Shown: one piece after another, positions 3,042-10,058 of the stretch
Layout: each line of letters starts with the position of its first letter
Position numbering within the stretch: the stretch's first letter is position 1
Virus genome (UHGV): UHGV-0142834
Source: a virus
DNA: 13,224 nt
Reading direction: 5' to 3' (one strand)
Translations under genes and position numbers: made by a program
Notes under the pieces: model-generated
What the model saw: the letters and a program-made list of their open reading frames with translations, nothing else
Told to the model about the DNA's origin: nothing
Databases searched by the model: none

Positions 3042-3278
3042 TCAGTTGTATCCGATTGGATTAACCGCAACAATAACGCCATCCGCGAACAAATCTTTAA
3101 TGAGGTGTTCGCTCGGCTCGCCTTTTTCGTACTCTTCAATAAGGTAAGTGTCTCCATCCTCATTGATATAAACTGGAAGAATGGAACCGTTGATGAAGTA
3201 GGTTCCGTTGTTATCGAGGATTTTTGCCTCGGCGATTTGTTTTTTGGTAAAACGATCTTCTTTTTTCAAAGTTGCCAT
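3042..3278 (-). CDS. Hypothetical phage protein (78 aa)
   Basis: Start moved to the internal ATG (MATLKKEDRF...) at 3278..3276, which is preceded by AAGGAG with about a 7-nt spacer. The longer track ORF (from 3350) would overlap the upstream ORF in another frame. Confidence 0.55.
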   Translation of the reverse strand: MATLKKEDRFTKKQIAEAKILDNNGTYFINGSILPVYINEDGDTYLIEEYEKGEPSEHLIKDLFADGVIVAVNPIGYN

Positions 3279-3279
3279 A

Positions 3280-3468
3280 TCACTCTCCTTTAGTGCGCAA
3301 ATGGTTTTTCCAGCGGTTTTGCGCCGCGCTGGGCTTTTTGCAAAAACCACAATCCATCATCCCGTAATATTTCATCAACCCCATCCGTCGGTTGCTGAGT
3401 CTCACCCACTGCCAGACGCCAGGAGCGTTTCTACGAACTAACAGAATCTTTGCTTTACGGTTTTTCAT
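3280..3468 (-). CDS. Hypothetical small basic protein (62 aa)
   Basis: ATG at 3468 preceded by AGGAGAG with an 8-nt spacer. Its TGA stop (3280..3282) lies 1 nt upstream of the next gene's ATG (3278). No recognisable motif. Confidence 0.35.
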   Translation of the reverse strand: MKNRKAKILLVRRNAPGVWQWVRLSNRRMGLMKYYGMMDCGFCKKPSAAQNRWKNHLRTKGE

Positions 3469-3640
3469 CGCTTTGCTCTCCTGCGTCTCTTTGCTGCTCG
3501 TCGTGCCGCTGCAATACCGGTATGGCGGCGCTTTGGTGCCGGGATGATGTTGTCAGCCATCAGGACATGTGGCTTTGCAATTAGCGCAGAAGCCCAAAAA
3601 CGAGTCGGGTACGGTAACAAGTCGATACATGCCACACGCA

Positions 3641-4129
3641 TTACTCACCTCCTTTGATGCGAATGCCTGTTGCAATGCTGTTTATGATGCTGTCAGTGCA
3701 TGGGGTAGAAAGCTGGGCATCTCCAGCAATTTTCATGACCTCAACATCTGCATATCGAATACCGAGGTGTATCAGACCGGCTATGCCTGACTTAAGCCGA
3801 GCATTTTCCATAAATAGAACTTTTGCCCGCTGTTTTTCTGCTTCAAGCTCAACACGCAGCTTCCCTACCGTTAGCGCAATTTCCTCGTTTTCCTGGTCGC
3901 GGCGTTTGATGTATTGCTGGTTTCTTTCCCGTTCATCCAGCAGTGCCAGCACGGTTTCTGGTCCGGTCAGAAATTTGAAGGCGTTGAGCGCATCAATATC
4001 CACACCGTAATCTTTAAGTTCCTGTTCACTTAACAAGTCATCATCAGCTGGCAACATTAACAGGCGTTCCATTGCTGGAATTGCACGTTCCGCCACCTCA
4101 CGCAGTGCCTGGTAATTAATTTCGCTCAC
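3641..4129 (-). CDS. Ead/Ea22-like coiled-coil phage protein (tentative)
   Basis: 162 aa ORF, GTG start at 4129..4127 preceded by AAAGGAGG with a 7-nt spacer. The GTG overlaps the upstream gene's TGA (GTGA coupling). N-terminus [11 protein letters not shown].. and the coiled-coil middle recall Ea22-like proteins; family call is from memory only. Confidence 0.6.
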   Translation of the reverse strand: MSEINYQALREVAERAIPAMERLLMLPADDDLLSEQELKDYGVDIDALNAFKFLTGPETVLALLDERERNQQYIKRRDQENEEIALTVGKLRVELEAEKQRAKVLFMENARLKSGIAGLIHLGIRYADVEVMKIAGDAQLSTPCTDSIINSIATGIRIKGGE

Positions 4130-5543: not shown

Positions 5544-6429
5544 TGGCAACCTCCAGTTTCGCTTTGCATTCTGCGTAAATGGCTTGTACGTTCTGCTGCA
5601 ATTTCATTCCAGATGTCAGGCGATATGCTTCTGCAAAATATCGCTTCAAATCATCCATGTTTTCTGCCTGAGCCATTTCATCACAAAGAAGTTGTGCTTT
5701 TTCCATAATTTCCTGCTGGCGTTTCCGTTCATCTTCGCGGATATCTTCCTCTGATTTGTGCGGCATAACTGGTTCCTGATGCATACCTTCATCTTCGTTA
5801 AGCAGGTGAATGGCATTATCCAGTCGCTGGGCTTTAGGCCAGTATTTGCTGGCGCGTTTAACTATTGTTTTACGCGCCATCTCTTCCCAGAATGTCTTCC
5901 ACGGTCCATTCTTTGCCTTGCTCGTTGCTTCCACAGCTTTAATTTCTGCCAGACTCATTTCTTCAGTGAGGTAGTCACCATCTGCTGTTTTAACCGTACA
6001 ATAACCACCAACAATAGAGCCTCGCTCACCAAATGCGTTGTATTTGTGGGTTGGTGCTGAATCAAGGCCGTTTGATTCATAGGTGTCGTTTGAGTACACC
6101 AGTTTGCATTGCCCCCACTTAATTGATCCTGTCGACTGTGCAAGGTGAAGTAATCCCATATAGCTGATATCAAGGCAAACCATGCCGTCGCGCGGAACTA
6201 GATAAGCAAGTTTGCTGGCCGGGTTTAAGGTGATGCCGATCGCCGCAACATTGATGATGGCGTTCTGTGCGCTGGTTGGATTTGCCAGTGCCGTTTTAGC
6301 CAGGTAATCGTTTTTCTGGAAATACTGAATTGCAAACTGGCTTTCCTTAGCCCATGTCACCGTCTGTTCAGTCAATGCTCCGCAGAATAACTGCTCCTGC
6401 TGTTTAACGAATTCAACGATATTGCTCAT
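5527..6429 (-). CDS. recT: RecT-family single-strand annealing recombinase
   Basis: 300 aa, ATG at 6429 with GGAG at an 8-nt spacer. The motif NGPWKTFWEEMARKTIVKRASKYWP closely parallels Rac RecT NGPWVTHWEEMAKKTAIRRLFKYLP. The ATG overlaps the upstream gene's TGA (ATGA). Confidence 0.85.
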   Translation of the reverse strand: MSNIVEFVKQQEQLFCGALTEQTVTWAKESQFAIQYFQKNDYLAKTALANPTSAQNAIINVAAIGITLNPASKLAYLVPRDGMVCLDISYMGLLHLAQSTGSIKWGQCKLVYSNDTYESNGLDSAPTHKYNAFGERGSIVGGYCTVKTADGDYLTEEMSLAEIKAVEATSKAKNGPWKTFWEEMARKTIVKRASKYWPKAQRLDNAIHLLNEDEGMHQEPVMPHKSEEDIREDERKRQQEIMEKAQLLCDEMAQAENMDDLKRYFAEAYRLTSGMKLQQNVQAIYAECKAKLEVASEQTV

Positions 6430-6737: not shown

Positions 6738-6822
6738 CTTTCTCCTGTTCTTTGTGCTGATTGAGCATTTTGTTCATCTGACGAATGAATTCTTCGTCTG
6801 ACCAGTTATCTGTAAAACTCAT
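6715..6822 (-). CDS. Small ORF (35 aa) in the kil position, not on the supplied ORF track
   Basis: Hand-translated: MSFTDNWSDEEFIRQMNKMLNQHKEQEKDDDSDSE. Its ATG (6822..6820) overlaps the TGA of the CIII-like gene (ATGA), mirroring the lambda cIII-kil overlap. Its 3' end overlaps the start of the 103-aa gene in another frame. Confidence 0.35.
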   Translation of the reverse strand: MSFTDNWSDEEFIRQMNKMLNQHKEQEKDDDSDSE

Positions 6823-6989
6823 GGACGGACTTGTTGTTTCAAAATATCCCAAAGCTTTTCGAGCAAACTTTTCATTCTTGGTTGTTTAAAGTCTGCTCCG
6901 GTTAAAATATTTTTTCGTGAATGCTGTACCGATAAAATCGGGTTGAAAGGGCGAACCGATGCCGCCCCTGCAATAGCGAACTGTTGCAT
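6819..6989 (-). CDS. CIII-like protein (candidate FtsH inhibitor, 56 aa)
   Basis: Start placed at the ATG 6989..6987 with AAGGAG at a 6-nt spacer; the track ORF starts further up at a TTG. N-terminus MQQFAIAG resembles lambda CIII MQYAIAG, and the C-terminal SLLEKLWDILKQ resembles the CIII amphipathic helix. Comparison is from memory. Confidence 0.45.
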   Translation of the reverse strand: MQQFAIAGAASVRPFNPILSVQHSRKNILTGADFKQPRMKSLLEKLWDILKQQVRP

Positions 6990-7050
6990 AGGATGCTCCT
7001 TCTGTTTGATTGCATAACGAAAACGCCTCGAGTGAAGCGTTATTGGTATG

Positions 7051-7079
7051 CATATAAAAAGGCCCTCACACTGGAGGGC
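7051..7079 (-). terminator. Intrinsic terminator for leftward transcription (tL-like), between the accessory cassette and the cIII-like gene
   Basis: Minus-strand hairpin GCCCTC-cagtgt-GAGGGC (7062..7079 on +) followed on the minus strand by CTTTTTATAT. The stem is only 6 bp. Confidence 0.45.
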
Positions 7080-7183
7080 AAAGAAGATTTCCAATAATCA
7101 GAACAAGTCGGCTCCTGTTTAGTTACGAGCGACATTGCTCCGTGTATTCACTCGTTGGAATGAATACACAGTGCTTACTCGTA

Positions 7184-7654
7184 CTAATAAAATACCCAAT
7201 TTTCTGTTTCTTGGTTGTGCCCAAAGTTATATTCAATATCTGGTGTTGATGTATCAATATTCTTCATCCCATCAACAAGAGTTGATACAACAGCCAAATC
7301 TTGTTTGATTCTCATTAAATGGTATTTCTTCCGGCGCAATAAACTCTCAATGGCAAGTTTCTTCGTTGGGAATGCAAAAGATCTTTCTGCATTTTTTGCT
7401 ACTTTCTTAATTGCATATCTATTTCTCCTTTGTTTCCATTCCTGTAACCACTGATTTGGTGCTGGTTTAAAATTAACAATCCAATGCGCAGGAACCAACC
7501 ATGCATAATGCTCTGTCTGATGAAAAGCTATATATTGAAGTGCGAATATTTTTATCCCATCTTCTTCAACTGTCGCTTGGAATCTCCAGAAAACAGGCAT
7601 TCCATCATGTTCAGTTTCTGATTCAGGAAAAGGTACGCTCCATGATTTTGTCAT
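7184..7654 (-). CDS. Hypothetical protein (156 aa), accessory cassette gene 2
   Basis: ATG at 7654 preceded by GAGGTG with about a 5-nt spacer. Trp-rich with a basic C-terminal half; no motif I recognise. The local sequence is AT-rich. Confidence 0.65.
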   Translation of the reverse strand: MTKSWSVPFPESETEHDGMPVFWRFQATVEEDGIKIFALQYIAFHQTEHYAWLVPAHWIVNFKPAPNQWLQEWKQRRNRYAIKKVAKNAERSFAFPTKKLAIESLLRRKKYHLMRIKQDLAVVSTLVDGMKNIDTSTPDIEYNFGHNQETENWVFY

Positions 7655-7717
7655 ATCTCACCTCAAATAATTCAGTGCAGTGTTTATTCTGTTGTTAGTG
7701 CCAAAAATAAAGGCCGA

Positions 7718-8341
7718 CTATGCGGCCTCGGAAGGAAGTCCAATCATCTTATTCAAATCTTCTACCCGTAAAGCAGGAAGTGCTGTACTTGCTTTATCTG
7801 CTTCTTTTGGTAGCAATTCTTTGCTTTCAGGCCAAACTTCAATAAGTCGCTTAACTGTTGTGACTGAGTTCAAAGCACCCCATACATTTGATTCGATATC
7901 CTTTTTCAAGGCTTCAAGGTTTTGTTGCAATGCGCAGATTTCATCAAACCTTTTTGTTATTTCGTGTTCTGCGTCAAACATGCACTTATCTTTGGTTGGA
8001 GTAGGGAGAAATATATCTTCGCCATTGCCGTCTTTCCCATATGAATGCCATCCAACCCTTCTGCCAGATACAGTCAGATAAATTGAAGTAGAACGAAAAT
8101 CGTATGAGTAAAATGAACATCCCATCTTTTCAAGTTCTTCACTTATAGCTACCAACTTGGATGATAACTGATCCACTTCCTCAGTTTTCTTTTTACCGCC
8201 AAACGCAATAACTCTGGCGTCAAGTGCAAGCTGGTTCTTTAACTTTGTTACTTCTTCAAGTTCAGTGAAAACCCCAGACTTAATTAAAGCGTTACGAGCG
8301 ATTTCCTCTTTCATTCTCGTAGTTAAGCGGATTGATGACAT
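7718..8341 (-). CDS. Hypothetical protein (207 aa), accessory cassette gene 1
   Basis: Start placed at the ATG 8341..8339 (MSSIRLTTRMKEE..) preceded by GAGAGG with a 7-nt spacer; the track's longer ORF would overlap the end of N. Coiled-coil-like N-terminal half; no motif I recognise. Confidence 0.65.
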   Translation of the reverse strand: MSSIRLTTRMKEEIARNALIKSGVFTELEEVTKLKNQLALDARVIAFGGKKKTEEVDQLSSKLVAISEELEKMGCSFYSYDFRSTSIYLTVSGRRVGWHSYGKDGNGEDIFLPTPTKDKCMFDAEHEITKRFDEICALQQNLEALKKDIESNVWGALNSVTTVKRLIEVWPESKELLPKEADKASTALPALRVEDLNKMIGLPSEAA

Positions 8342-8352
8342 ATTAATTCCTC

Positions 8353-8679
8353 TCAAATAAGTGGTTTGCTGCCTAATTTCATTTTCTGGCGACCAACACA
8401 AGTCACACCCATTTCACTGCGTGGCTTGCTGTACCATGTGCGCTGATTCTTGCGCTCAATACGTTGCAGGTTGCTTTCAATCTGTTCGTGGTATTCAGCC
8501 AGCACCGTAAGGTCTATCGGATTCAGTGCGCTTTCTACTCGTGATTTCGGTTTGCGATTCAGCGAGAGAATAGGGCGGTTAACTGGTTTTGCGCTTACCC
8601 CAACCAACAGGGGATTTGCTGCTTTCCATTGAGCCTGTTTCTCTGCGCGACGTTCGCGGCGGCGTGTTTGTGCATCCAT
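8353..8679 (-). CDS. N: Antitermination protein N (lambda N-like)
   Basis: Start at the ATG 8679..8677 with AGGAG at a 7-nt spacer. MDAQTRRRERRAEKQAQWKAANPLLVGVSAKPVNRPILSLNRKPKSRVESALNPIDLTVLAEYH.. matches the lambda N arginine-rich motif and most of the protein as I recall it; the C-terminus diverges. Confidence 0.9.
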   Translation of the reverse strand: MDAQTRRRERRAEKQAQWKAANPLLVGVSAKPVNRPILSLNRKPKSRVESALNPIDLTVLAEYHEQIESNLQRIERKNQRTWYSKPRSEMGVTCVGRQKMKLGSKPLI

Positions 8680-8851
8680 CTGGATTCTCCTGTCAGTTAG
8701 CTTTGGTGGTGTGGTAGGTGGGAGACCCATTTCGACCTGCTTCGGCCGACTTCAATTCGGCAATAGTTCCGCAGGCCTCGCCGCTTTACGTGCGACATAT
8801 TCCCATCCATGAACCCTTCACCACACCCCAAAGCCTTCTGCTTTGAATGCT

Positions 8852-8882
8852 GCCCTTCTTCAGGGCTTAATTTTTAAGAGCG
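8852..8882 (-). promoter_or_regulatory. nutL: nutL site (boxA CGCTCTTAA and boxB GCCCTGAAGAAGGGC on the minus strand)
   Basis: Plus strand reads gcccttcttcagggc (8852..8866) and ttaagagcg (8874..8882), the reverse complements of lambda nutL boxB and boxA. Located between pL and N. Confidence 0.85.
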
Positions 8883-8922
8883 TCACCTTCATGGTGGTCA
8901 GTGCGTCCTGCTGATGGCTTAA

Positions 8923-8963
8923 AATATACCTACAGGTAAAACCCATGTCTATACCTGTAGGTA
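8923..8963 (-). promoter_or_regulatory. pL-like promoter with two overlapping dyad operators (OL)
   Basis: On the minus strand: -35 TAGACA (8946..8951), 17-bp spacer, -10 TATATT (8923..8928). Dyad operators TACCTACAGGTA (8927..8938) and TACCTGTAGGTA (8952..8963) overlap the -10 and -35. A third, split dyad TTACCTG-N10-CAGGTAA lies at 8984..9007. Confidence 0.5.
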
Positions 8964-9060: not shown

Positions 9061-9357
9061 TCAGAAGCTATTTGGATTGCTTGGCCATTGCGGCAATTTT
9101 GATTCTACTGGGGTGTGTTTGGGTTTGAGTCCGTTTAAGTAGTCAAGGCGCTCAATGGCGCATTTATACATAGCAATCTGCTCTGATGACATGTCGTCGT
9201 ATGACATGCCTTTGAACTTTTTAATTATCGATTCTGCCTCATGTATAAGATTCTTCTTCCTCATGAGTTCAGCTGTATGCTTAGAGCTTACAGGAGATAA
9301 CTTTGCCCATATGAAGCAGATGATTACAACAGCGACTACTATGCCGGGTATAAACAT
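9061..9357 (-). CDS. Small single-pass membrane protein downstream of cI (rexB/sie slot); candidate superinfection-exclusion or defense protein
   Basis: ATG at 9357 gives a 98-aa product starting MFIPGIVVAVVIICFIWAKL (TM helix) followed by a charged soluble tail. An alternative TTG at 9375 overlaps the cI stop. Co-transcribed with cI and followed by a strong terminator. Confidence 0.6.
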   Translation of the reverse strand: MFIPGIVVAVVIICFIWAKLSPVSSKHTAELMRKKNLIHEAESIIKKFKGMSYDDMSSEQIAMYKCAIERLDYLNGLKPKHTPVESKLPQWPSNPNSF

Positions 9358-9371
9358 TTGCTGCTTTATCC

Positions 9372-10058
9372 TCAAACTTTTGGCAGATCGTCCTGGTCTA
9401 CGTACCTGGTGTGTTTCACAATAGCTGAAACAAAATGCATTTTATCAACTTCTTCAACAGGAAGAGTGATTGGGCGGTGATCACTGTTTATGCTACTAAA
9501 CTGATAATCACCGTCTCTTGTTTTGTTCATGATCTTTATCATGTTGTGACCGTCTTTGGTCCTTACAAAGACTTCATCACCTGGATGTACTGGCGTATTT
9601 GGTTCAATAACAACATATTCTCCTGACTGAATCCTTGGCCACATGCTGTCACCCTTAACCTTCAGACCGTAAGCATCTTTATCGCCGCTGTAGATGCTTA
9701 ACCAACCGGATCTGAATTCAATCATATCCACTGAGCCATCAACTCCCAAAACGGCTTCACCAATTACCGGAACAAAACCCGCACGAACGTTACCCGCAAA
9801 CTCAAGATGGTCCGTAGCTCCAGCTTTACCATCTGCAAGCATGTCCATCCATCCGCGTGGGAGATTAAAAGATTTTTCAATTAGTTCCATCATATCGTCA
9901 GCAATGCGTTTTTTTCCGCTTTTTCCTTCCGGATACAGCATTCTGGAAACGTATGATGGTTCCCTTTCTATTCGACGAGCCAACTCTGAGGCCTTTCCAT
10001 TACAGAATCGGTCTCTTATCTCTATCAGCCTTAGTCGTCTTTGTTCGTATTTATCCAT
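9372..10058 (-). CDS. cI: CI-type prophage repressor (N-terminal HTH, C-terminal LexA-like S24 peptidase domain)
   Basis: 228 aa, ATG at 10058. HTH region NGKASELARRIEREPSYVSRML. C-terminal KVKGDSMWPRIQSGEYVVIEP..GDEVFVRTKDGHNMIKIM contains the S24 Ser/Lys dyad context. Divergent from cro with operators between them. Confidence 0.9.
   Translation of the reverse strand: MDKYEQRRLRLIEIRDRFCNGKASELARRIEREPSYVSRMLYPEGKSGKKRIADDMMELIEKSFNLPRGWMDMLADGKAGATDHLEFAGNVRAGFVPVIGEAVLGVDGSVDMIEFRSGWLSIYSGDKDAYGLKVKGDSMWPRIQSGEYVVIEPNTPVHPGDEVFVRTKDGHNMIKIMNKTRDGDYQFSSINSDHRPITLPVEEVDKMHFVSAIVKHTRYVDQDDLPKV

Follow-up and report, generated by a model that had tools for sequence, protein, structure and literature searches.

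The two genes at positions 7184-8341 of the window (the whole stretch of 13,224 nucleotides that was analysed, UHGV virus genome UHGV-0142834) are best read as early accessory genes that form two mosaic modules of one gene each, independent of one another, within the hypervariable stretch between N and cIII in the pL (early-left) operon of a lambdoid prophage. We assign this reading as a whole a probability of about one half. The anatomy of the block and the independence of its genes, here called A and B, are very likely as described. The block does not represent a new system of two genes, which corrects an earlier reading of this DNA, and both proteins are already catalogued, with near or full identity to proteins of phages 933W, H-19B, HK542 and mEp235.

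Organisation of the locus

An earlier note on this DNA had described two co-directional minus-strand genes encoding 207 and 156 amino acids. The corresponding ORFs were found exactly there (8341..7718 and 7654..7184), between a lambda-type N gene and cIII. The elements of the locus are as follows.

8923..8951, minus strand: pL-like sigma-70 promoter, TAGACA-17-TATATT (10 of 12 matches in a consensus scan; a candidate by consensus match only)
8852..8866, minus strand: nutL boxB hairpin, GCCCTGAAGAAGGGC
8353..8682, minus strand: N, lambda-type antiterminator, 109 aa, beginning MDAQTRRRERR (Pfam N36, E 1.6e-26; PHROG 271)
7718..8341, minus strand: gene A, 207-aa Nmad5-family protein (PF18757, PHROG 1965)
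7184..7654, minus strand: gene B, 156 aa, identical to L0079 of 933W (PHROG 1636)
6819..6989, minus strand: cIII, conserved backbone gene that comes next and ends the variable slot (PHROG 550 CIII, E 4.9e-21)

The candidate pL-like promoter lies about 50 nt upstream of the nutL boxB and would drive N, A and B. The boxB is presumably identical in sequence to that of lambda nutL, and the region 8378-8916 aligns with lambda 35062-35583 at 85.6% identity. The distance from the stop codon of N to the start of gene A is 11 nt. The ribosome-binding sites are good and read as the note had given them, GAGAGG 7 nt before the ATG of gene A and GAGGTG 4 nt before the ATG of gene B; cIII has AAGGAG ahead of its ATG at 6989. 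Judging from full-length homologues of each, down to 33-55% identity and with the motifs conserved, A and B are real genes.

Both genes are compositionally foreign. The GC content is 39.9% in gene A, 36.1% in gene B and 38.2% in the block, versus 50.2% in N and 45.6% in the window, and GC in third codon positions is 34% and 28% in A and B, versus 47% in N. A sliding-window analysis, proposed in the note, places the block among the lowest regions: an equally low GC content is observed in 7 of 1207 segments of 1158 bp, with the minimum at 7191. The hand counts given there (32-38% against 52%) had the right direction and slightly exaggerated the difference.

Cassette boundaries and co-occurrence of the two genes

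The breakpoints of blastn alignments divide the block into two cassettes.

About 7671..8351: cassette carrying gene A
About 7175..7672: cassette carrying gene B

In Huey, 933W and Dewey the A cassette is missing and 7670 is joined directly to 8352; the sequence TTATTTGAG, the end of N, is common to both its junctions. HK542, mEp235 and lambda lack the B cassette, 7174 being joined directly to 7673; the right end of this cassette coincides with the 'boundary sequence 4' annotated in the HK542 record EF120458. Since these mosaic breakpoints are clean, we consider A and B to be two separate single-gene cassettes, not one unit. The A cassette replaces exactly the sieB-orf28-ral segment of lambda (superinfection exclusion and restriction alleviation), in the same slot and with the same flanking junctions. 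The assignment of the block to the ral/sieB slot in the earlier note was thus correct for gene A, and the N-to-cIII interval is indeed hypervariable.

Gene A stands alone directly after N in HK542, HK244 and mEp235, and gene B stands alone in the same place in 933W, H-19B, BP-4795, Huey and Dewey. The window differs from the first three phages in that gene B has been inserted behind gene A, protein A being the same. In 933W and H-19B the L0079-type gene directly follows N, whereas here it is separated from N by the A cassette.

The note had treated the genes as one cassette, and an alternative to our reading is that they form a single defence or anti-defence module, acquired together and working together. 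Indeed, they are adjacent and co-directional, both have low GC content, and the same A-B junction is found in 48 of 5,426 complete E. coli genomes. However, A is present in 209 and B in 593 of these genomes, so that the adjacent pair accounts for 23% of the A carriers and 8% of the B carriers; some of the listed carriers are O25:H4 or ST131 by strain name, and the 48 genomes may partly share ancestry. Of 50,697 phage records, 77 contain A and 80 contain B, and the A-B junction was never observed: the adjacent pair is found in 0 of the 157 phage records having either gene. Moreover, each gene occurs alone after N in viable, well-studied phages, the cassettes have separate boundaries, and a terminator-like junction element lies between them.

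Of 28 loci scanned with HMMs, only the window, an E. coli genome picked for its A-B arrangement, and Vibrio phage PvVp04 have both genes. In the latter (vB_Vp_PvVp04_M) distant homologues of A and B lie two genes apart in one early operon, which favours a common module. However, in all but one locus the divergent homologues of A or B do not have the other gene nearby, and in Pectobacterium and Brenneria homologues of B adjoin xis/int, far from any homologue of A. The note had taken the lack of co-occurrence in other genomes as evidence against its reading, and the two genes are not constant partners. A joint module is thus highly improbable, and the two-gene cassette has to be abandoned.

Hairpins and expected expression

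Three hairpins bear on transcription of the block.

7710..7729, minus strand: terminator-like hairpin GAGGCCG-CATAGT-CGGCCTT followed by TATTTTT (dG -11 kcal/mol, z -1.25)
7140..7171, minus strand: perfect 14-bp hairpin without a U tract (dG -23.5 kcal/mol, z -5.96)
7052..7079, minus strand: intrinsic-terminator-like hairpin GCCCTC-CAGTGT-GAGGGC followed by CTTTTTATAT (dG -10.7 kcal/mol, z -2.06)

The hairpin and the terminator downstream of the block, at 7171..7140 and 7079..7062 (the stem-loop of the hairpin with the U tract), had been listed in the note and are present; the third structure, between the genes, had been missed. A further hairpin is located at 7041..7022. The hairpin that separates the two genes overlaps gene A at its stop codon and is a part of a 49-bp junction (7673-7721) that lies 3' of ral in lambda (34040-34087) and is also free-standing in Dewey and in many E. 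coli genomes. The hairpin at 7140..7171 belongs to the conserved backbone, not to the B cassette, and the region 7052-7174 is 97.6% identical to the ea10-ral intergenic region of lambda (33923-34045). Overall, the conservation between lambda and the window is 92-98% for the 49 bp that follow ral and for the hairpins between ea10 and ral.

No terminator was found between N and gene A and the gap is short, and therefore A should be made together with N. Gene B sits between two terminator-like hairpins and thus is probably a delayed-early, N-dependent gene. However, the hairpin separating it from A folds no better than shuffled sequence, and so the N-dependence of B, predicted from these structures, is uncertain. 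The note had deduced N-dependence of the entire block from the terminator downstream of it. This inverts the logic, as a downstream terminator does not make the preceding gene dependent on N, and only gene B lies behind a terminator-like hairpin.

One possibility is that A and/or B are expressed from the prophage as superinfection-exclusion or abortive-infection genes, analogous to lambda sieB. Gene A is exactly at the sieB-ral position, the composition is that of a foreign 'moron', and A has a terminator-like hairpin of its own. Besides, a preprint (bioRxiv 10.64898/2026.07.10.737580) presents the lambdoid early-left region as a modular hotspot of conflict between host and phage. On the other hand, both genes are on the pL strand. 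Of the promoter and terminator that an autonomous moron expressed in the lysogen would have, terminator-like hairpins are found 3' of both A and B, but no promoter-like site was observed on the coding strand in 7184-8351 by a crude consensus scan, which leaves room for a weak internal promoter. Lambda sieB has its own promoter and, unlike A and B, lies on the opposite strand. No PADLOC match was observed for either gene, and the PHROG and Pfam scans revealed no similarity of A or B to Ral or SieB, the only PHROG families returned being 1965 and 1636. Finally, homologues of A consistently come first among the early genes, including in Dhillonvirus, Yuavirus and Vibrio phages, which are apparently virulent, and this conserved position argues for a function in the lytic cycle. 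We consider an exclusion role very unlikely. The antisense ORF 7680-8081 (HK542c101) was considered as a sieB-like lysogen gene and rejected, as no PHROG family matched it and its position is not preserved among the divergent homologues.

Gene A is a member of the Nmad5 family

The note had recognised no motif in either protein. However, gene A matches the Pfam family Nmad5 (PF18757) over its full length (E 2.4e-70; positions 1-206 of the 206 in the profile), scoring 237.2 bits where the curated gathering cut-off is 27, and PHROG 1965 with E 2.5e-82; PF18757 is present in all 120 homologues found. The RefSeq name is 'Nmad5 family putative nucleotide modification protein'. The closest relatives are the Nmad5 proteins mEp235_037 (96.6% identity), HK542c102/HK542_033 and HK244 orf01, all 96-97% identical to A; in all of these phages the gene, like gene A, is located right after N or Nun. 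Nmad5 is carried by about 4% of the complete E. coli genomes and is spread over many phage groups. No PADLOC-DB v2 defence family and no NCBIfam family matched gene A. The family was originally described by Iyer et al. (NAR, 2013). A literature search found no biochemical study of Nmad5, and the OLD-sentinel preprint, which uses HK542, makes no statement on gene A.

The predicted structure of A (AF2 model, pLDDT 84.8) is helical: a coiled-coil of three helices is combined with a small beta sheet and a long helix. Neither an enzyme-like fold nor a pattern of catalytic residues was observed in it, and the invariant residues of A contain no conserved constellation of His, Cys or Asp. A structure search in BFVD retrieved only other Nmad5 or unnamed phage proteins, and sequence searches against solved structures yielded nothing below E 0.1 for A and B. 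Judging from these structural matches and from its invariant residues, A is probably not an enzyme.

Two surface motifs are invariant, RLT..I..NA..K.G in the N-terminal part and T-x-K-[KR]-L-I-x-x-W-P-E followed by L-N-x-x-x-G-x-P in the C-terminal part. Residues T162, L166, W170, P171, E172, L196, N197, G201 and P203 are the same in 10 sequences, including EP23p07 and ORF056 of phage M6, and the conserved C-terminal core is common to the distant members from M6, Dhillonvirus and Vibrio phages. In particular, Nmad5 of Dhillonvirus (SM_S22 CDS0006, EP23p07), a determinant of sensitivity to the Tmn defence, has the C-terminal half in common with A (32% identity over 100 residues, E 3e-12). Unlike gene A, the Dhillonvirus gene lies among head genes beside RusA, in a virulent phage, and the protein has large insertions in the middle region.

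As reported in the Tmn paper, substitution of K296 by Glu in Nmad5 of Dhillonvirus SM_S22 leads to escape from Tmn, whereas deletion of nmad5 does not; the wild-type gene could not be cloned due to apparent toxicity. K296 aligns to R165 of A, inside TxK[KR]LIxxWPE. The location of the escape residue on an invariant motif singles out K164/R165 of A for mutation to Glu. A kinship of A or B with the anti-Tmn ORF35 of SM_S22 was also considered and is not supported: among the six-frame ORFs of this phage, the HMM of A matched only CDS0006 (Nmad5), and the HMM of B matched nothing at E < 0.01.

Genomic context and possible role of gene A

Homologues of A with 41-57% identity are the first called genes after the repressor in prophages of Klebsiella, Serratia and Providencia, with no N-like ORF in the gap between the repressor and the A homologue. 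In Salmonella, Vibrio and metagenomic phages, other homologues lie in regions of early, replication or recombination genes.

The names given by Pfam and RefSeq suggest that A is an accessory of DNA or nucleotide base modification, for instance targeting or scaffolding the enzymes on phage DNA and in this way protecting it from restriction. In the M6-like Pseudomonas phages Nmad5 does lie in a thymidine-hypermodification cassette, beside aGPT-Pplase1 and a nucleotide kinase, and the homology of ORF056 of M6/SN1 to A is detectable over residues 121-207 (29% identity); ORF056 is likewise an early-region gene and lies near the DNA polymerase gene. However, the enzymes flanking ORF056 (aGPT-Pplase, kinase, rSAM, PLP enzyme, hydroxymethylase) are missing from the lambdoid and enterobacterial contexts. 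No modification enzymes were observed near A in the window, nor in the ±6-kb contexts of its homologues from Klebsiella, Serratia, Providencia, Salmonella, Vibrio and metagenomic phages, with the exception of two Klebsiella loci, where genes for DndB and a Dam-like methylase lie at a distance of about 5 kb. Among the contexts examined, the association of Nmad5 with modification enzymes is present only in M6. The name thus reflects guilt by association in a different phage group sharing the C-terminal half only, the usual neighbours everywhere are early replication genes, and the search for a catalytic fold in A found none. Further, it is Nmad2, not Nmad5, that occurs in the NMAD-containing defence system which DefensePredictor validated. 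A role of A in modification is therefore quite unlikely.

Another possibility is that A is not a host-interaction protein, but an accessory of replication or recombination, such as a loader, a scaffold or a factor binding DNA ends. Its homologues have as neighbours a DUF2800 PD-(D/E)XK nuclease, an Enc34-type ssDNA-binding protein and PolA, and elsewhere a replication initiator, RusA, or thymidylate synthase and DNA polymerase; in the window, a RecT-like gene is located downstream. On the other hand, such regions gather early genes whatever their function, a DNA-binding fold was not detected in A, and the gene is facultative among otherwise very similar lambdoid phages. In 48 records of Stx2a phages it is disrupted by an IS3-family element, so it is dispensable at least for prophage maintenance, and this is more in line with an accessory gene than with a core function in replication. 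We regard a replication role as unlikely.

Tentatively, we prefer to consider A and B early binding proteins of the lytic cycle, neither prophage defence genes nor modification enzymes, and such roles are possible. Gene A, an allelic replacement of the lambda sieB-orf28-ral segment, would be expressed immediately once pL fires upon infection or induction. Early in the lytic cycle its product may bind a partner of host or phage origin, with a role in counter-defence, in host take-over or as an accessory of replication; its conserved surface would be the one to which Tmn responds in Dhillonvirus. Gene B is unrelated to A and was inserted separately at a known recombination junction.

A bolder version of this proposal, which we consider doubtful, is that Nmad5 is misnamed and represents a widespread, non-enzymatic, immediate-early effector binding a host target, for counter-defence or for taking over the host. 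The motif TxK[KR]LIxxWPE might then be monitored by membrane NTPase defences of the Tmn type; Nmad5 would be the lambdoid alternative to sieB/ral, and L0079 a second, independent effector. If Nmad5 is indeed a sensed early effector and not a modification factor, the annotation of the family would need revision throughout RefSeq. The window and its relatives comprise natural phages with A only, B only, and both genes, and thus provide tractable systems in E. coli K-12.

Two further observations concern these readings. In lambda the slot houses sieB, an exclusion gene expressed in the lysogen, which speaks against an early lytic role. The family name and the M6-like hypermodification cassette point to DNA modification, against a non-modification role.

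Gene B

Gene B encodes a basic (pI 9.1), Trp-rich protein of 156 aa. As with gene A, it turned out to be a known protein: it is 100% identical to L0079 of 933W and to the proteins of BP-4795, Min27 and others, and 99.4% identical to that of H-19B. It matches PHROG 1636 over positions 1-156 of 156 (E 2.7e-112). No Pfam, NCBIfam or PADLOC family was assigned to it, the sole match in PADLOC-DB v2 being Cas1 at chance level (E 0.018), and a literature search found no paper mentioning L0079 together with 933W. The AF2 model is poor (pLDDT 60). That gene B encodes a nucleic-acid binder is a guess.

An exhaustive profile search with B produced 87 clusters, nearly all of them standalone proteins of about 130-165 aa; the remaining matches are fragments and two long proteins with weak partial similarity. 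No informative Pfam domain or fusion was observed in the 10 homologues scanned. About 11% of the complete E. coli genomes carry L0079, as do most of the Stx phages sampled.

Position of the block in the early operon

The window represents a lambdoid prophage's early region. The block under study lies in the leftward operon, with N on one side and cIII on the other. N is a lambda-type antiterminator (Pfam N36, E 1.6e-26), and it is preceded by a boxB hairpin whose sequence, GCCCTGAAGAAGGGC, is that of lambda nutL boxB.

270-1448, integrase gene
leftward early operon (-), RecT-like and Gam-like recombination genes
6989-6819 (-), cIII
7041-7022 (-), further hairpin
7079-7062 (-), terminator-like hairpin with a U tract
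7171-7140 (-), 14-bp perfect hairpin without a U tract, dG -23.5 kcal/mol, z -5.96
7654-7184 (-), gene B, 156 aa
7729-7710 (-), terminator-like hairpin with a TATTTTT tail, overlapping the stop codon of A and separating A from B
8341-7718 (-), gene A, 207 aa
8682-8353 (-), N
8866-8852 (-), boxB hairpin
8951-8923 (-), pL-like promoter match
9372-10058, cI-like repressor, in the switch region with cro
rightward genes, O-like replication gene and DnaB-like helicase gene

The earlier note, made from the sequence alone, described two AT-rich genes with good ribosome-binding sites, bounded downstream by a hairpin and a terminator. All of these features were found. The GC content is 39.9% in A and 36.1% in B, compared with 50.2% in N and 45.6% in the window; at third codon positions it is 34% and 28%, compared with 47% in N. 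A sliding-window count makes the block essentially the 1158-bp stretch of lowest GC in the window. Many full-length homologues with conserved motifs show that both genes are real coding genes. An antisense ORF of 133 aa lies inside A (7680-8081, plus strand), and the HK542 immunity-region record annotates a gene there, HK542c101. It is probably spurious, as it belongs to no PHROG family and its position is not kept in divergent Nmad5 loci.

The hairpin directly 3' of B (7140-7171) is 97.6% conserved with the ea10-ral intergenic region of lambda, and could be an RNA-processing or rho-related site instead of an intrinsic terminator. The hairpin between A and B had been overlooked; its fold energy is unremarkable (z -1.25).

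Boundaries of the two cassettes

Breakpoints were determined by alignment to six related loci and are clean throughout. In phages HK542 and mEp235, A is present and position 7174 is joined straight to 7673, the B cassette (~7175-7672) being absent. In Huey, 933W and Dewey, B is present and 7670 is joined straight to 8352, the A cassette (~7671-8351) being absent. The last codons of N, TTATTTGAG, are common to both junctions and recur upstream of B. Two window segments, 7052-7174 and 7673-7721, have counterparts that are contiguous in lambda: the first matches lambda 33923-34045, the ea10-ral intergenic region, at 97.6%, and the second matches 34040-34087, directly past the stop codon of ral. 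Thus A exactly takes the place of lambda sieB-orf28-ral, and B has been inserted at a junction left intact in lambda, HK542 and mEp235. This insertion junction coincides with "boundary sequence 4", annotated in the immunity-region record of HK542 at its left end. A stretch of 41-56 bp around the 7729-7710 hairpin also occurs free-standing, for example past B in Dewey and in numerous E. coli genomes. The alignments point to two separate cassettes, not one, and we put the probability of this anatomy and of the independence of A and B at about 0.85.

HK542 matches the stretch comprising A and N at 98%, N and its upstream region (8378-8916) are lambda-like at 85.6%, and positions 8701-8800, just upstream of N, are 97% identical to 933W. 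These segments show that there are more mosaic joints near the start of N, at most a few hundred bases from it.

Co-occurrence of A and B

Among 50,697 phage records, A was found in 77 and B in 80, and the A-B junction in none. Among 5,426 complete E. coli genomes the corresponding numbers are 209, 593 and 48. Several carriers of A, B and N among the matches listed are O25:H4 or ST131 by strain name, and so some of the 48 may share ancestry. When HMMs of both families were scanned across all 28 fetched loci, A and B occurred together in three: the window, one E. coli genome that had been picked for this arrangement, and Vibrio phage vB_Vp_PvVp04_M. This phage alone was found to have both a distant A homologue (36% identity) and a distant B homologue (28% identity), and it carries them in a single early operon. 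They lie at 1583-2215 and 3213-3662 (minus strand), in the opposite order and separated by two genes, and a replication initiator gene follows shortly downstream. The B homologues of Pectobacterium and Brenneria (57-63% identity) are at the far end of the early operon, adjoining xis/int, with no A homologue within 6 kb.

The earlier note had proposed one two-gene defence or anti-defence module, to be given up if the pair did not co-occur elsewhere. This is what was found, and a joint module of A and B is highly improbable. Having them side by side is just another mosaic arrangement, found in ~1% of the complete E. coli genomes.

Gene A and the Nmad5 family

Over its full length A belongs to Pfam Nmad5 (PF18757; 237 bits, E 2.4e-70), and its PHROG is 1965 (unknown function); RefSeq names it "Nmad5 family putative nucleotide modification protein". 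The closest relatives, mEp235_037 and HK542_033, are 96-97% identical. The AF2 model is confident (pLDDT 84.8). In it, residues 8-72 form three long helices, 86-121 a small beta sheet and 127-158 another long helix; short helices come next, then a disordered linker at 184-191 and, at the C-terminus, a conserved segment. A Foldseek search against viral models retrieved only Nmad5 or unnamed phage proteins of ~200 aa.

By sequence, A belongs in Nmad5, but it lacks the contextual feature behind the family name. No modification enzymes are encoded near A within the window, and the invariant residues of the family, mainly structural or basic and acidic surface positions, form no catalytic-looking constellation. 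M6-like Pseudomonas phages provide the only context in which an Nmad5 homologue lies inside a thymidine-hypermodification cassette, and there the alignment with A is limited to the C-terminal 85 residues. Elsewhere the surroundings of the homologues lack modification enzymes, except that genes for DndB and a Dam-like methylase lie at a distance of ~5 kb in two of the Klebsiella loci. That A is a true modification factor is accordingly improbable.

In Klebsiella, Serratia and Providencia prophages the first gene called beyond the repressor, and on its strand, is the A homologue (41-57% identity), and the ~400-bp gap between them contains no N-like ORF. Hence the homologue (~5600-6000 of the loci) takes the position of N in lambda. 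Still more divergent homologues are found in early regions, next to genes for replication or recombination; a replication or recombination accessory is an unlikely reading of A, if somewhat less so than a modification factor. In 48 records of Stx2a-converting phages, A is split after approximately codon 34 by a 1.3-kb IS3-family element with HTH_Tnp_1 and rve ORFs (LC616032.1, 1874-3182, corresponding to window ~8235-8238); the matches on its two sides share 4 bases. Hence these prophages do not need A.

Experiments on the family were found for Dhillonvirus phages alone. Escape from the defence system Tmn was mapped to one amino acid exchange in Nmad5 (K296E in SM_S22, K216E in SM_A8), and deletion of nmad5 gives no escape; wild-type nmad5 could not be cloned, apparently because of toxicity (PMC11846954). 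In the protein alignment, K296 of SM_S22 corresponds to R165 of A, within the invariant motif T-x-K-[KR]-L-I-x-x-W-P-E. A later preprint reports that Tmn recognises RIIB of phage T2, which shows that an early phage protein can trigger Tmn. The SM_S22 nmad5 CDS (PP627283.1, 5005-6009, minus strand) is annotated as 334 aa, and the family-conserved N-terminus MRLTKDIKNQ starts at Met81. The "N-terminal truncation" of the SM_A8 protein (PMC11846954) probably stems from a mis-called start in SM_S22, which would account for K296 versus K216.

Gene B

B matches L0079 of 933W, and its counterparts in numerous further Stx phages, with 100% identity; for the H-19B gene the identity is 99.4%. By sequence, B is a member of the L0079 family. 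It belongs to PHROG 1636 (unknown function) and to no Pfam, NCBIfam or PADLOC family. The protein is basic (pI 9.1), with seven tryptophans, five of them invariant, a basic helix LLRRKKYHLMRIKQD and a conserved C-terminal motif FGHNxETExW. An exhaustive profile search of 1.8 billion representatives yielded no more than 87 clusters; almost all of them are standalone proteins of 130-165 aa, the remainder being fragments and two long proteins with weak partial matches. None of the 10 scanned contains an informative domain.

Expression and possible mode of action

A starts 11 nt past the N stop codon with no terminator between, and so should be transcribed with N once pL is derepressed; antitermination would be unneeded. 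B lies past a terminator-like hairpin, before the conserved cluster of hairpins and terminators, and is therefore more likely to be N-dependent. A consensus scan finds nothing promoter-like on the coding strand of the block, and thus neither gene is expected to be expressed in the lysogen. Lysogen-expressed exclusion is likewise improbable, slightly more so than a modification role for A.

Both genes may instead encode lytic-cycle accessory proteins, not prophage-encoded defences. A would act by binding, not catalysis, via its conserved N-terminal and C-terminal motifs: it is promoter-proximal across genera, toxicity has been reported, and in Dhillonvirus a point change, not deletion, alters the outcome with Tmn. 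This functional assignment is tentative, at somewhat less than even odds; the role of A might be counter-defence, host take-over or replication accessory.

Relation to known systems and a neighbouring candidate

A and B are unrelated to Ral, SieB, anti-Tmn or any PADLOC model. The NMAD domain of a recently validated E. coli defence system is Nmad2, unlike that of A. The block is no new kind of element, as the hypervariable slot is known and both genes are catalogued; both proteins are very common in phages, one being present in most Stx phages sampled.

Next to the cI-like repressor, whose stop codon marks its start, lies a 104-aa ORF (9061-9375, minus strand; PHROG 10450, unknown function). 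The N-terminus of its product includes a hydrophobic stretch, FIPGIVVAVVIICFIW, and a strong terminator (9049-9033) comes after the ORF. Since the ORF occupies the rexAB position, it would share the repressor's transcript in the lysogen, and is a better candidate for prophage-encoded exclusion or defence than A or B.
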